Below are positions 7,424-11,371 of a stretch of DNA of 47,726 nt, piece after piece. Within the stretch, counting starts at the first letter, position 1, and each line of letters opens with the position of its first letter. The position numbers and the translations under genes were made by a program. This DNA comes from Escherichia phage HC6, in the sequence record OL362274.1, one strand, 5' to 3'. The notes beneath the pieces are model-generated. The model was not told the origin of the DNA, made no database searches, and worked only from the letters and a program-made list of their open reading frames with translations.

Positions 7424-7864
7424 ATGAAACTATCGCAACGCGGCAAAGAACTAATCAAGTCGTTCGAGGGTTTTGAGCTTCGTGCTTATCCCGACCCAGC
7501 GACTGGTGGCGCCCCGTGGACCGCTGGTTATGGTCACACTGGTGCAGACGTTAAGCCCGGAATGACAGTGACGCAGGAGATGGCTAATGCATGGCTGGAT
7601 GGTGACGTGAAGAGGTTTGAGGATGGCGTATCGGCGCTGCTAACCGCACCAACCACTCAGTCGCAATTCGATGCAATGGTGTCGTTGGCATACAACATTG
7701 GTCTTGGCAACTTCCGCAAATCAACCCTGCTACGCAAGCATAACGAGAAATGCTACACCTGTGCTGCCAGCCAATTCCTCGTGTGGAATCGCGCCGCTGG
7801 TAAGGTTATGAATGGCCTGACACGGAGGCGTAACGCGGAACGCGCTATGTATATGGGGCAATGA
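7424..7864 (+). CDS. endolysin (GH24 lysozyme)
   Basis: 146 aa; AGGAGG RBS; LRAYPDP, GYGHTG and LAYNIG motifs resemble lambda R / P22 gp19-type lysozymes. Confidence 0.85.
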   Translation: MKLSQRGKELIKSFEGFELRAYPDPATGGAPWTAGYGHTGADVKPGMTVTQEMANAWLDGDVKRFEDGVSALLTAPTTQSQFDAMVSLAYNIGLGNFRKSTLLRKHNEKCYTCAASQFLVWNRAAGKVMNGLTRRRNAERAMYMGQ

Positions 7865-8100
7865 AAAAGCTAAGCAACTGGCTGCTCGGCGCGTGGATTT
7901 CGTTCTGCTCACTGTTGCAGCTGTGGCCTGATGCAATGATGCATGTGTGGGTAATGATGCCTGATGACCTGAAAGCGGCGCTACCGCCAATCGTGGTTAA
8001 AGGTGTAAGCTACTCAATTATGCTTGTCGGCATCCTCGGCAAAATGCACGGCATGAGGAAGGAAAACCGGAGGCTGCGCGATGATGTCGATTCTCGCTAA
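7861..8100 (+). CDS. putative holin
   Basis: 79 aa with two hydrophobic segments and basic C-terminus; ATGA overlap with endolysin stop; function inferred from position. Confidence 0.45.
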   Translation: MKKLSNWLLGAWISFCSLLQLWPDAMMHVWVMMPDDLKAALPPIVVKGVSYSIMLVGILGKMHGMRKENRRLRDDVDSR

Positions 8101-8572
8101 ATACTGGCGACCACTAGTAATTATTATAATTGTTGCTGCTGGCGCGTTGTGGGTAGCAAATAAAGTATCCAGCTATGGCGAGCAGCAATATGCCGCTGGA
8201 TATGCAAAAGCAATCGCAGACCAGAAGGCCGCAGACAAACAAGAGGAGCAACGACGCAATGCAGAACTGCAAAAGATTCAGGCCGACGCACAGCAAAGGA
8301 TTGATGCTGCGCGTAATGATGCTGTTAATGCTGCTGCTAAGTCTGGCAGGTTGCAGCAACAACTCACCAGTATCCGCAAGCAGCTCGTCGGATATTCCAC
8401 CGCTGAGTCCATTGGCAACCCAGCCGCAGATACCGGAGTTTTGCTTGCCGATGTGCTCAGCAAATCTATCGAAAGAAATCGACAACTGGCAGATTATGCT
8501 GACAGGGCAAGAGAAGCGGGATTAGCGTGTGAGGCGCAGTATAATTCGCTGCGCAATAAAAAAGCCCCGTGA
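8081..8572 (+). CDS. i-spanin (Rz-like)
   Basis: 163 aa; N-terminal TM (WRPLVIIIIVAAGALWVA), then Q/A/R-rich coiled-coil-like region; directly after lysin and holin. Confidence 0.7.
   Translation: MMSILAKYWRPLVIIIIVAAGALWVANKVSSYGEQQYAAGYAKAIADQKAADKQEEQRRNAELQKIQADAQQRIDAARNDAVNAAAKSGRLQQQLTSIRKQLVGYSTAESIGNPAADTGVLLADVLSKSIERNRQLADYADRAREAGLACEAQYNSLRNKKAP
8316..8525 (+). CDS. o-spanin (Rz1-like lipoprotein) embedded in i-spanin gene
   Basis: +1 frame inside 8081..8572; MMLLMLLLSLAG-C lipobox; Pro-rich mature part; 69 aa. Confidence 0.65.
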   Translation: MMLLMLLLSLAGCSNNSPVSASSSSDIPPLSPLATQPQIPEFCLPMCSANLSKEIDNWQIMLTGQEKRD

Positions 8573-8590
8573 TGGGGCTTGTGTTTAATT
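8557..8590. terminator. bidirectional rho-independent terminator
   Basis: AAAAAA-GCCCC-gtgat-GGGGC-TTGTGTTT; T-run on both strands; between convergent gene blocks. Confidence 0.6.
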
Positions 8591-8740
8591 GGTTTGCTCA
8601 GACTCTTCTCTCTGCTTCCACATCTGCTTCAGCTGAAAATAAGCATACGCCTCATCTCCATCTTTCGCATTGCGTTCCATTTTCTCACACCATGCCGATG
8701 GTTTTGGCGGCTCATTCTGCTGGCAGTGTTGTTGGCTCAT
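8585..8740 (-). CDS. hypothetical small protein
   Basis: 51 aa from ATG 8740; track ORF extends to 8803; overlapped by plus-strand ORF 8569..8790, so uncertain. Confidence 0.3.
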   Translation of the reverse strand: MSQQHCQQNEPPKPSAWCEKMERNAKDGDEAYAYFQLKQMWKQREESEQTN

Positions 8741-8786
8741 TAACAGATTCCTCGGCCATAGCTTCAACGATGCGTACCAGTGAACA

Positions 8787-9020
8787 CTAAAGATTAGGTG
8801 CATTGTAATTACCCGCCAAAAACAGGACGCTACCCGTGCTAATCAGCACCTGTTTCGCGTTTGCCTGTGACAGATTCTGCACGATGAATTGCGCTGTTTC
8901 TGTGCCGATTTTCAGCACTGCGCTGCCGTCGCTATTCAGTGATACCAGCTGTGCGGACGTGTCAGCAATGTTGGTAAAGTTCGCGTTTCGTTGCGCGATG
9001 GTGATATCGCAGAATGACAT
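8787..9020 (-). CDS. hypothetical protein
   Basis: 77 aa track ORF in minus-strand block. Confidence 0.5.
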   Translation of the reverse strand: MSFCDITIAQRNANFTNIADTSAQLVSLNSDGSAVLKIGTETAQFIVQNLSQANAKQVLISTGSVLFLAGNYNAPNL

Positions 9021-9022
9021 TT

Positions 9023-9235
9023 TTATGCTCCTGTGTTGAAGTGAATTTTGCCGTTTTCGCCATGTGTTGCCGGTTCGATTGTCACTGTGATTGTAGGCTC
9101 TCCAAAAGAAGGGATGTTGAACTGGAAGTCAATTACGCCAGCAACCATGCGTCCATCCTGATCGACAATCATACTTCTGCCATTAACTTGCTCAACATGG
9201 AGATACACTGGCTCGTCATATTTAGGTAGCGACAT
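9023..9235 (-). CDS. hypothetical protein
   Basis: 70 aa track ORF, tightly packed. Confidence 0.5.
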   Translation of the reverse strand: MSLPKYDEPVYLHVEQVNGRSMIVDQDGRMVAGVIDFQFNIPSFGEPTITVTIEPATHGENGKIHFNTGA

Positions 9236-9714
9236 TATTTAATCTCTCCATTCAGCTCATTAACAATTAACGTTGCATAGCCAGCAATATCTTTCCAGCT
9301 GTCATCATAGGTCGGGTCGCCATTCAGAATGCGCCCAATCTTGTGCTGAATCATGTCGAGCGCCTCGCGTTGACTTGGTGTGAGATTGTGCCAGCCATCA
9401 ACTTCGCGCATCACACCTTTCAACTCCTGCATAATTTCAGCGCCGTCCTTGAATTTGCCGTATCGGCTACCGCGTTCGGTGATGAGGGCTTCTGTTGGGG
9501 ATGTAAACCACATTTCCGCGCCGACCTCCGTAACATTCACTGGCTCACGATGGGCGATAACAATATCGCCAGCCTTTTCGATATCCTTCTCTCGCCCCGC
9601 ATAATCCGCGCTGAGGTAGTATATTTTGCCACTGGTTGCTGATTTCACAACAAGAACAGCATCTTCATGACCATTAAAATAATCAGCACTCCCCTTCAGG
9701 TATTTGTATTTCAT
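9235..9714 (-). CDS. hypothetical protein with conserved-looking C-terminal domain
   Basis: 159 aa; C-terminal SRYGKF...LTPSQREALDMIQHKIGRILNGDPTYDDSWKDIAGYA looks like a conserved phage domain I cannot name. Confidence 0.6.
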   Translation of the reverse strand: MKYKYLKGSADYFNGHEDAVLVVKSATSGKIYYLSADYAGREKDIEKAGDIVIAHREPVNVTEVGAEMWFTSPTEALITERGSRYGKFKDGAEIMQELKGVMREVDGWHNLTPSQREALDMIQHKIGRILNGDPTYDDSWKDIAGYATLIVNELNGEIK

Positions 9715-9896
9715 CTCACCACCTCAAATTTAATTTTCACCACCTCATCAGTTGATGCGCCATTCTCAACAACCCATTTATAGGCATCAAACCGGTCTTC
9801 AAAGACAATCATTCTTGACGGGGTGTCATCACCATCCCCATTAACATAAGAGACCGGTGCACCTCTGTCGTTTATTACTGTCCATCTTTCCATCAC
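9711..9896 (-). CDS. hypothetical small protein
   Basis: 61 aa; overlaps neighbours by 4 nt. Confidence 0.45.
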   Translation of the reverse strand: MMERWTVINDRGAPVSYVNGDGDDTPSRMIVFEDRFDAYKWVVENGASTDEVVKIKFEVVR

Positions 9897-10093
9897 TCGC
9901 CTCTCAATGTAACCTTGTTGCTTTCGTCAACATTAAAATTAGCCCGAATCAAATCATACATCTCATCCTTTGGCATATCAGCCAGTGCCACATAGCAACG
10001 GGCAAAGTAGCGAACATCACGGAGTGTCAGTGGCTGACGCTTCTCCACAATGCTGGTGATAATGTCCATCGGCTCGCGTCGTGGTCTTGGCAT
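9893..10093 (-). CDS. hypothetical small protein
   Basis: 66 aa; first gene after divergent promoter region. Confidence 0.5.
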   Translation of the reverse strand: MPRPRREPMDIITSIVEKRQPLTLRDVRYFARCYVALADMPKDEMYDLIRANFNVDESNKVTLRGE

Positions 10094-10120
10094 ATTTACT
10101 ACTCCTTCTCGAAAAACATC

Positions 10121-10165
10121 TTGACGTTTCTACATCACTTAGTCAATACTTATTGACGTAGATTG
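10121..10165. promoter_or_regulatory. divergent promoter region with paired TCTACRYCA motifs
   Basis: TTGACGTTTCTACATCAC and inverted TTGACGTAGATTG between divergent genes 10093 and 10193. Confidence 0.4.
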
Positions 10166-10192
10166 TACCACAACGGAAAAGGTGATGTGGAA

Positions 10193-10390
10193 ATGCGATA
10201 CAAAGAAATAGCAGCGAGATATCAGAAGGAAGTTCGCGAGGTTATGGAAATCCTTAACGTTCGCGAGGATACCATTAAGTTTGTGGAAACTGCCATGTGC
10301 TCACTGGCGCTTGAAGCGGAGGTTGCAGGTCGTGAAAAGGCTGACGAACTTATATCTGCGGTGGTTTATAGTTCAACCAGTAACGGTTGA
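10193..10390 (+). CDS. hypothetical small protein
   Basis: 65 aa from ATG 10193 (MRYKEIAARYQ...); in frame with track ORF 10163. Confidence 0.5.
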   Translation: MRYKEIAARYQKEVREVMEILNVREDTIKFVETAMCSLALEAEVAGREKADELISAVVYSSTSNG

Positions 10391-10450
10391 AGATGAAGGT
10401 TATCTGTGCGTTGAGCACGTTGTTATCAAATTCTACTGGAGAAATTATAA

Positions 10451-10645
10451 ATGGCGCATGACGAGATGTACGAAAAGTCGTTAATCCAGCGACTGAATGA
10501 AGTTGAACGCACTCGCGAATGGCTGGAGTGCGAGTTGCGAGAGGTGCGAAACCGACTGCAACGCAAGCGCAGTCAGCAGAAAGACGTTATCGACTGGTCC
10601 GGTGATGCACCTAAATTTAACAACATTGGAGAATGGTTGAAATGA
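10451..10645 (+). CDS. hypothetical protein
   Basis: 64 aa, charged, helical-looking. Confidence 0.5.
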   Translation: MAHDEMYEKSLIQRLNEVERTREWLECELREVRNRLQRKRSQQKDVIDWSGDAPKFNNIGEWLK

Positions 10646-10893
10646 GCGCACCACACATGCCAGTGATGAATGAGAACGGATTGCTTGAGTGCCCATGCTG
10701 CGCGTCCAGTGAAATTTATCTGGTTAAAACAGTAGGTGGCTGGAGTTATGTTGAGTGCGACTCATGTTTGCTAAAAACAGAGCATGGTAAGTCACCGGAA
10801 TTGGCAATAAAGACATGGAATCGTCGCAACGGGCACCTCTACACCGCAGAAGACTTCAACCAGGCAGCAGAGGACCGTGATTATGGACTATAA
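10633..10893 (+). CDS. Lar-family restriction alleviation protein-like
   Basis: CPCC...SSEIY...CDSC...AIKTWNRR matches my recollection of the Lar zinc-ribbon pattern; start 10633 or 10642. Confidence 0.55.
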   Translation: MVEMSAPHMPVMNENGLLECPCCASSEIYLVKTVGGWSYVECDSCLLKTEHGKSPELAIKTWNRRNGHLYTAEDFNQAAEDRDYGL

Positions 10894-11371
10894 ATCACAA
10901 ATCATGCGCGTGATTATCAATCATCCTGGTGCAACGCGCGCATACATTGAAAAGCATTGCGGAGGGAAGCATTCAAGCACCACGACGCATCGTCTGCATG
11001 AGATGCTTGCGCTTGGCTTCATTCGTCGCGAGAAGTCAGTGATTCGTGGCGGCAAATGGCAATATAAATATTTCATCTCTGATGATGCGGCTGGTATTGA
11101 TGATGCGATTAAGTGCCATTTACTTGATAACTCTGGCGCAGAGGTGAAAGAAATTAGCGCAGCCACTGGCATTGATTACCGAATCGTGAAAAGCCGCATC
11201 CGCATTATGTTTCATAACGGTGATGTGACGCGAAGCTATGACCACCACAAGAAGCTATGGCGCTATTCATGGCGTGAGCAGGAAGTTAACGTCAGCAACC
11301 TGTTCAATTCACTTCTTCGCAACGCAAGAGGTCAGCATGGGAAAAGCAAAACGCAAGAAGCAAGAGTATGA
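10883..11371 (+). CDS. putative DNA-binding protein (tandem winged-helix-like)
   Basis: 162 aa from ATG 10883; two HTH-like segments; inference only. Confidence 0.5.
   Translation: MDYKSQIMRVIINHPGATRAYIEKHCGGKHSSTTTHRLHEMLALGFIRREKSVIRGGKWQYKYFISDDAAGIDDAIKCHLLDNSGAEVKEISAATGIDYRIVKSRIRIMFHNGDVTRSYDHHKKLWRYSWREQEVNVSNLFNSLLRNARGQHGKSKTQEARV

Follow-up and report, generated by a model that had tools for sequence, protein, structure and literature searches.

We analyzed a 47,726-nt sequence of Escherichia phage HC6 (OL362274.1), referred to here in its full length as the window, and asked what is encoded by a block of six small minus-strand genes at 8585–10093, next to the lysis cassette. The block is a real but ordinary accessory operon. 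We consider it probable that these genes form one leftward accessory unit, likely expressed early, in which the first gene encodes a DNA-binding regulator and the other five are exchangeable cargo; the cargo protein that belongs to the domain family DUF6378 may have a nucleotide- or DNA-directed function. The sequence, the six coding sequences (CDS) and the domain family are all in public databases already, and the architecture is common among tailed phages. What is new is limited to corrected gene models and labels that can be tested; the system is not of a new kind.

The phage is a Skatevirus-like siphophage. Its sequence is 100% identical to ON637251.1 (Escherichia phage 6947), rotated by 23 nt (window coordinate = record coordinate + 23). 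Its nearest relatives, within the broader Skatevirus cluster of small siphophages, are HC8A (99.9%) and Salmonella phage Skate (95.8% nucleotide identity). The original prediction, made from the sequence alone, had proposed six tightly packed minus-strand genes at about 8585–10093, in agreement with the CDS of ON637251.1, where all six are labeled hypothetical proteins in GenBank, and with the six equivalent CDS annotated in Skate. We named the genes g1 to g6 by rising coordinate, with g6 the first to be transcribed. In window coordinates, the CDS of ON637251.1 are:

8585–8740, minus strand: g1, 51 amino acids (aa), PHROG 1312 (a family of unknown function), identical to the GenBank CDS
8787–9020, minus strand: g2, 77 aa, a truncated allele of a 102-aa protein, PHROG 16624 (a family of unknown function)
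9023–9235, minus strand: g3, 70 aa, PHROG 38236 (a family of unknown function), sporadic cargo
9235–9714, minus strand: g4, 159 aa, a two-part protein with a disordered linker
9711–9893, minus strand: g5, 60 aa, an ORFan
9893–10093, minus strand: g6, 66 aa, heading the operon, a predicted winged-helix protein with a conserved basic N terminus (MPRPRR)

The packing of the genes is that of a translationally coupled operon, with abutting or overlapping junctions and no internal terminator. Genes g6 and g5 share one base (9893) in TGATG, g5 and g4 overlap by ATGA (9711–9714), g4 and g3 share base 9235 in TAATG, and g3 and g2 are separated by 2 nt. The sole real gap, 46 nt between g2 and g1, was produced by an amber codon. 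Only one minus-strand terminator-like site was found within or flanking the block, at 8562–8580. The signals that delimit the putative transcript are:

8562–8580, shared by both strands: terminator hairpin AAGCCCC-GTGAT-GGGGCTT, common to the lysis cassette (plus strand) and the operon (minus strand)
10121–10150, plus strand: putative promoter P_R (TTGACG, 18-nt spacer, AATACT), predicted start ∼10157
10162–10191, minus strand: putative promoter P_L1 (TCCACA, 18-nt spacer, TACAAT, extended −10 TG; TGGTACAAT), predicted start ∼10155
10142–10157, no strand: perfect palindrome GTCAATAcTTATTGAC (GTCAATA-ct-TATTGAC), between both −10 elements

The terminator stem has 7 bp, including five GC pairs, and the GTGAT loop holds the stop codon of the i-spanin gene. 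On the minus strand, the GC-rich hairpin is followed by a U-tract, as in an intrinsic terminator (tail UUUUUUAUU, U6AUU; z = −2.65 vs. shuffles). The plus-strand tail is interrupted (GUGUUUAAUU) and weaker (z = −1.39), making bidirectional termination a plausible but weaker proposition. The stem is invariant and the loop variable among relatives, and the terminator is annotated in Skate and ASO78B. An Rfam scan of 8300–10500 returned chance matches only, far under threshold.

At the other end of the block, the case for the promoters comes from conservation. P_L1 has a consensus score of 9/12, with its −10 element at 10162–10167. We compared it with Roufvirus-type loci of Vibrio phage pYD38-A and Klebsiella phages VLCpiS13f and RSU-F4K5 (L018–L020). 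The motif TTCCACA-N17/18-TGnTAnAAT is kept in all three (TGATACAAT in L018, TGTTAGAAT in L019 [VLCpiS13f], and TGATATAAT in L020), with diverged flanks. The P_R pattern TTGACN-18-AATACT is kept in the same loci, and P_R is the sole TTGAC-N19-WATAMT match in the genome (0.12 expected). The proposal of an operon with a divergent promoter region at one end and a shared terminator at the other was borne out as far as the hairpin and the conserved elements of the predicted promoters go. Because P_L1 and P_R overlap, with predicted starts at ∼10155 and ∼10157, the two should exclude each other.

The palindrome between the −10 elements is unique in the genome and unchanged in 11 out of 13 close relatives. 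The promoter region holds three TTGAC boxes (10121, 10142–10146, and 10153), and the palindrome may be an operator or merely a pair of back-to-back −35-like boxes. There is also a 12-nt inverted repeat, 10127–10138 and 10182–10193 (TTTCTACATCAC and GTGATGTGGAAA; 92% complementary). The right arm spans the start codon of the first rightward gene as well as the Shine-Dalgarno sequence before it, and the left arm is only partly conserved in a second promoter allele (Skate and others).

The coding strand was assessed in two analyses. In one, 12 relatives of several genera were aligned to 8540–9034, and synonymous and non-synonymous differences were counted in six frames; the other covered all six genes in up to 13 loci. 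The original prediction had called g1 and g2 uncertain owing to open reading frames (ORFs) on the opposite strand. It had suggested a coding comparison across relatives for 8585–8800, in which conservation of the plus-strand ORFs would speak against the minus-strand genes. The comparison favored the minus frames. Over g1 (8588–8740), the annotated frame had 94 synonymous and 44 non-synonymous differences and was stop-free in 10 out of 11 sequences, versus 20 and 120 in the frame of the plus ORF 8569–8790. Over g2 (8790–9020), the annotated frame was stop-free, with 228 synonymous and 27 non-synonymous differences, and each plus frame had one to seven stops per sequence. In the second analysis, the annotated minus frame had the highest synonymous fraction of the six frames in every gene. 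The fraction was 0.68 for g1, 0.86 for g2 (0.86–0.89 over both analyses), 0.85 for the C-terminal half of g4 (262 synonymous and 48 non-synonymous), and 0.69 for g6. Values were lower where substitutions were few: 0.40 for g3 (17/25), 0.46 for g5 (13 synonymous and 15 non-synonymous; a weak result), and 0.31 for the N-terminal half of g4, where one antisense frame reached the same value.

It is thus extremely improbable that the plus ORFs 8569–8790, 8579–8743, and 8836–9039 are the real genes and the minus calls artifacts. The ORF at 8569–8790 is indeed open over 8588–8740 in 11 out of 11 sequences. However, the substitution counts in its frame run the wrong way, every plus frame is broken by stops past 8790 where the minus frame of g2 has none, the ORF had no match in PHROG and Pfam searches, and its start carries the terminator hairpin. 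Judged by the substitution patterns in relatives, these plus-strand ORFs are rejected as genes and are shadow ORFs, and the strand question is settled for minus.

The boundaries of g1 fared less well than its strand. A 72-aa call starting at 8803 was rejected: The ATG at 8801–8803 is ACG in four out of 12 relatives, and over the extension, synonymous differences make up a fraction of 0.23. The PHROG 1312 match is limited to aa 32–70 of that call. All sequences keep the ATG at 8740, which, as read from the sequence, has a GAGGA Shine-Dalgarno 8 nt upstream; this places the g1 start at 8740 and gives 51 aa. The conserved core of the protein is MERNAKDGDEAYAYFQLKQMWKQRE, with 65/17 differences in the core. 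The stretch 8741–8803, previously taken as part of g1, is instead the untranslated tail of an amber-cut g2.

Gene g2 is nearly invariant among relatives, and its PHROG 16624 match covers profile positions 1–77 of 102. The g2 stop codon TAG (8787–8789) is GAG in 12 out of 12 relatives, the window having A for C at 8789. In all 12, the protein is 102 aa long, ends at TGA (8712–8714), and overlaps g1 by 29 nt. The amber codon removes an acidic tail of 25 aa, the protein of relatives ending in EESVDEPTTLPAE; HC8A has the truncation too. What is left downstream is:

8712–8786, minus strand: g2 C-terminal remnant, 24 intact codons plus TGA past the amber, untranslated

Since these 24 codons are still intact, the amber change is recent. 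In an amber-suppressing (supE) host, the full-length g2 protein could still be made.

The leading gene, g6, probably encodes a winged-helix DNA-binding protein. Its AlphaFold2 model (predicted local distance difference test, pLDDT, of 88.1) has the order H1-b-H2-H3-wing. This matches the winged-helix fold, in which three bundled helices include a helix-turn-helix and a beta-hairpin at the C terminus forms the wing. The g6 family is a narrow one, with 77 members at 61% identity or more, a conserved MPRPRR N terminus, and an invariant core, PL-LRDVR-A-C. We compared g6 with BlaI/MecI, the Fur N-terminal domain, MarR/ArsR/PadR, SSV1 F-93, and STIV F93. Unlike these small winged-helix domains, it has no family match in Pfam, NCBIfam, or PADLOC, and unlike BlaI/MecI-type proteins and the like, it has no dimerization or sensor domain. 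Inverted repeats lie 36–63 bp upstream of g6, although their conservation is incomplete. Third codon positions in the first 43 codons of g6 (9965–10093) vary at only 12 out of 43, versus ∼0.75 in g1, g2, and the 3′ part of g6. This low variation may reflect an overlapping constraint at the DNA level, or recent recombinational homogenization or a recombination anchor. Together with the intergenic region, the start of g6 belongs to one of the four most conserved stretches of the genome: 10051–10200 and only three others reach 98.5% identity or more to Bas77 and to Sf11 alike (genome mean window identity of 0.89).

The best-characterized cargo protein is g4. An AlphaFold2 model (pLDDT 87.7 overall) divides it into a small beta-rich N-terminal domain (aa 1–59; 9538–9714) and a C-terminal helical bundle (aa 73–154; roughly 9238–9498) with helices at 73–85, 88–104, 106–110, 113–131, and 137–154 (pLDDT 90–98). 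The C-terminal segment had been flagged from the sequence as a conserved phage domain, and this was correct: it is the widespread Pfam family DUF6378 (PF19905). The match covers aa 76–150 and profile positions 9–77 of 81 (69 of the 81), with E = 5.5e-06. As a single sequence, g4 scores 27.0 bits, 0.1 bit under the curated cut-off of 27.1. An identical database protein (P0001) has a precomputed assignment to PF19905.5, and 129 out of 138 homolog representatives match DUF6378 at E ≤ 1e-3. g4 also has the family motif ERGxRYGxF...HKIGRILNGDPxYxDSWxDIAGYA and the all-helical domain of ∼80 aa, and we regard its membership, judged on sequence, as secure in practice. It differs from the family at large in that its subfamily has the extra short beta-rich N-terminal domain, which is found in close relatives only. 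The PHROGs tied to g4 and DUF6378 are 17775, 16943, 474, and 37386. Across the whole block, a Pfam scan of the proteins gave DUF6378 alone, with the remaining matches being sub-threshold noise, and NCBIfam and PADLOC scans of the six proteins gave no match (PADLOC at E ≤ 1).

Searching g4 against 1.84 billion cluster representatives gave 6518 matches, nearly all to aa ∼72–159 only, and the regions that precede DUF6378 in these proteins have very different lengths. In the alignment of 138 sequences, R81 and G86 are invariant, and ∼25 further positions are conserved at 90% or more. These include Y85, F88, K99, W108, Q115, E117, H124, K125, R128, N131, G132, D133, P134, Y136, D138, W140, D142, G145, and Y146, many of them charged (K99, E117, H124, K125, R128, D133, D138, and D142). 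No Pfam domain recurs as a partner of DUF6378 in the 138 representatives (E ≤ 1) plus 10 longer ones. Searches of PDB sequences, by single-sequence phmmer and with a profile of the 138 sequences, found only a chance RGSRYG match to TRF2, and Foldseek with the whole g4 model against the PDB found no significant neighbor (best E of 0.45). In the literature, DUF6378 appeared in three gene tables only, and PF19905, phrog_474, and IPR045958 were unmentioned.

Genomic context elsewhere suggests a link with DNA replication or repair. We examined DUF6378 genes in unrelated metagenomic phage contigs (L026 5001–5672, L031 5001–5570, L034 5001–5408, and L024 233–532). The contexts found elsewhere place the gene mostly in replication, repair, or modification modules: between a ParB-N6/N4 methyltransferase gene and a UDG-family gene with DNA polymerase A nearby; after DNA polymerase A and RNase H; adjoining RusA; in a Faecalibacterium phage, following ThyX; and in a brucellaphage, within the replication module. 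In another contig (L032), the DUF6378 gene lies in a moron-like island of small genes among tail genes.

The block is mosaic. Its gene content varies between relatives, with g3 and g5 coming and going. At the DNA level, the C-terminal half of g4 (9231–9497) is conserved among close relatives, and the N-terminal half is replaced by non-homologous sequence in most of them. Skate gp20–gp25 resemble the block in being flanked by the spanin genes and the divergent rightward operon, in strand, in terminator, and in the presence of the same six CDS. The difference from the Skatevirus group is that g2 is amber-truncated in the window (77 aa vs. 102 aa). In the natural isolate KFS-SE2, the block has an HNH endonuclease in place of the DUF6378 gene. 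HNH homing-endonuclease genes occur in or beside the homologous block in KFS-SE2 (L005 2313–2810), VSt472 (L006 2862–3350), and VLCpiS13f (L019 32–517). Such insertions in several relatives make the locus look like a hot spot at which mobile genes enter and genes are replaced.

Published deletion mutants informed us about the dispensability of the cargo. The seszw records are mutants of a Skatevirus whose genome was reduced with CRISPR (Nucleic Acids Res 2022, PMC9825161), and by the definition of that paper, genes missing from isolated mutants are non-essential (PMC9825161). We read the essentiality classes from the deposited mutant genomes (∼70 records). The homologous seszw block has equal position, strand, and terminator and consists of four genes: 80 (homolog of g1; 97% identity), 81 (g2, 102 aa; 97%), 1 (g4; 72% overall, with an almost identical C-terminal domain), and 2 (g6; 91%). 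Like many other relatives, seszw differs from the window in lacking g3 and g5 and in having another N-terminal half of g4. Only 26 of the ∼70 records contain the interior of the DUF6378 gene (deleted in ∼44/70), and 62–63 contain that of the g2 homolog (deleted in ∼8). The homologs of g2 and g4 are dispensable in seszw. In seszw_300L.2, the smallest of the mutants, 245 bp are deleted from gene 81 and 404 bp from gene 1, and genes 80 and 2, the homologs of g1 and g6, are kept. The g6 homolog is present in all 70 seszw genomes.

Taken together, conserved signals suggest that host sigma-70 RNA polymerase would start at the extended −10 promoter (10162–10167), with a start at ∼10155, where the leftward promoter overlaps the divergent rightward promoter at 10121–10150. 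The six translationally coupled small genes would be read through as one transcript ending at the hairpin 8562–8580, which would also serve as the end point for the lysis cassette from the opposite side. From its predicted fold and position, g6 is most likely DNA-binding, with the inverted repeats of TTGAC boxes in its own promoter region as a plausible target, and its binding there would tune two mutually exclusive divergent promoters. Comparison with relatives shows that the five downstream genes are exchangeable cargo, with the N terminus of g4 swapped and the DUF6378 module kept. Our best guess for DUF6378 is a non-essential nucleotide- or DNA-directed accessory function, to which the variable N-terminal domain may give specificity. 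The rightward operon of the same promoter region includes a Lar restriction-alleviation gene, which fits an early or host-takeover region.

Several points weigh against this account. Promoter consensus matches in the region number six, versus 6.2 expected from shuffles; promoter-like sites being no commoner than in shuffles, consensus matching alone is no proof, and it is conservation that is informative. Leftward transcription could just as well use a second, weak promoter, TTGACT-17-CAAGAT. The palindrome is altered in ASO78B and VSt472, its left arm is lost in Roufvirus-type relatives that retain g6, and a search of the genome for further copies of the palindrome or its TATTGACTA box, as in a possible regulon, found none above chance. 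The retention of g6 in all seszw mutants may merely reflect that no deletion was recovered. The context argument for DUF6378 comes from a handful of loci, one of which (L032) is moron-like among tail genes, and the family had no significant neighbor in the structural and sequence searches (Foldseek best E of 0.45; nothing from the PDB profile search). A more ambitious version of our account is doubtful, namely, that g6 is a dedicated winged-helix switch acting on the TTGAC-box inverted repeats and that DUF6378 is a new nucleotide- or DNA-directed effector whose swappable N termini retarget it, for example, against host defenses. If true, a g6 switch at overlapping divergent promoters would explain the low synonymous variation at the 5′ end of g6 and in the promoter region.

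Three other functions for the block have to be weighed. The cargo genes, especially g4 and the acidic-tailed g2, could be anti-defense or host-takeover factors. Such a role would explain dispensability on a permissive laboratory host together with mosaic content in nature, and it is in line with the deletion of the g2 and g4 homologs in seszw, the variable gene content and swapped N-terminal domain of g4, the Lar gene in the divergent sister operon, and the acidic tail of g2 in relatives (EESVDEPTTLPAE). We nevertheless consider it rather unlikely. The proteins have no similarity to characterized inhibitors, g2 is truncated or inactivated in the window phage itself, and the BASEL study reported that Skatevirus-group phages are markedly sensitive to restriction-modification systems and Old. 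The lack of matches to PADLOC models also counts against it, albeit as a weak test, PADLOC covering defense and not anti-defense proteins.

It is less likely still that the DUF6378 protein is a nucleotide-metabolizing enzyme, such as a MazG-like pyrophosphohydrolase of (deoxy)nucleoside triphosphates, (d)NTPs, or a nucleotide kinase like T7 gp1.7. The helical bundle does carry charged residues (R81, K99, E117, H124, K125, R128, D133, D138, and D142), and DUF6378 is often found in replication and nucleotide-metabolism modules. PHROG 474 is even labeled "phosphofructokinase," but this is an inherited name and not a tested function, and no Pfam family other than DUF6378 recurs in the 138 diverse members at E ≤ 1. 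T7 gp1.7 (DUF3310) is a nucleotide kinase with a small helical phage domain that lacks a classical nucleotide-binding motif, and DUF6378 is likewise a small helical phage domain without such a motif. A relationship between the two is unsupported, however: hhalign of the DUF6378 profile against DUF3310 gave a probability of 0.3%, and PF11753 was unmatched by DUF6378 members, so we rejected this kinship. Kinship with MazG-like proteins was likewise rejected, no profile or fold similarity being detected. Least credible of the three is that the block extends the lysis cassette, with antiholins or lysis-timing regulators. It directly adjoins the endolysin, holin, and spanin genes, and the version of the block in RSU-F4K5 has an annotated "putative antiholin" with three transmembrane helices. 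However, that gene has no counterpart in the window, the block is on the opposite strand with a terminator between it and the lysis genes, the six products have no evident transmembrane segment (read by eye from the sequences, not with a prediction tool), and the g2 and g4 homologs can be deleted in viable seszw mutants. We therefore rejected a lysis function.

The accessory operon that we favor resembles the moron-like or accessory cassettes of tailed phages (lambdoid and T1-like), which have their own promoter and terminator. It is self-contained in the same way, with a putative promoter and an intrinsic terminator of its own, lies between essential modules, and is mosaic with dispensable content. 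It differs in that the window phage is virulent, so the block genes are not prophage-expressed, and in being headed by a conserved putative regulator never lost in the seszw reduction. The practical yield is fourfold: Two gene models are corrected (the g1 start and the amber-truncated g2), the operon-leading ORF gets a testable label as a winged-helix protein, a conserved pair of overlapping, putative divergent promoters is defined that is directly testable, and the DUF6378 family, with over 6500 cluster representatives, is tied to published deletion data, by which it is dispensable in a close relative. Being a large family, with enzyme-like conservation and neither a function nor a solved structure, it is a reasonable structural or biochemical target, although the g4 locus gives no special handle on it.

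The two remaining cargo genes have narrow distributions. Gene g3 was found in 33 phage records, with amino acid identity down to 36%–40%, and is not present in S192, VSt472, swi2, Sf11, and seszw. Gene g5 was found in 21 phage records only, all with at least 90% amino acid identity, and had no Pfam, PHROG, NCBIfam, or PADLOC match. As read from the sequence, a GAGG lies 6 nt before the ATG at 9893 and only 3 nt before a GTG at 9896; given this spacing, the ATG (60 aa) is preferred and more likely to be the g5 start.

On the left flank, the lysis cassette consists of a GH24 lysozyme (7424–7864; PF00959), a holin-like protein (7861–8100), and an i-spanin (8081–8572; DUF2514), with an embedded o-spanin that is annotated in relatives. 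Where Skate and most relatives carry a pair of neighboring endolysin ORFs (279 and 465 nt), the window phage has a single 146-aa GH24 lysozyme (7424–7864), so the left part of the cassette has been exchanged. On the right flank is the rightward operon with the Lar gene (10633–10893, plus strand; PF14354, 36.3 bits). The gene that follows (10883–11371, plus strand) encodes a protein weakly matching the MarR-like winged helix, a further candidate regulator of the shared promoter region.

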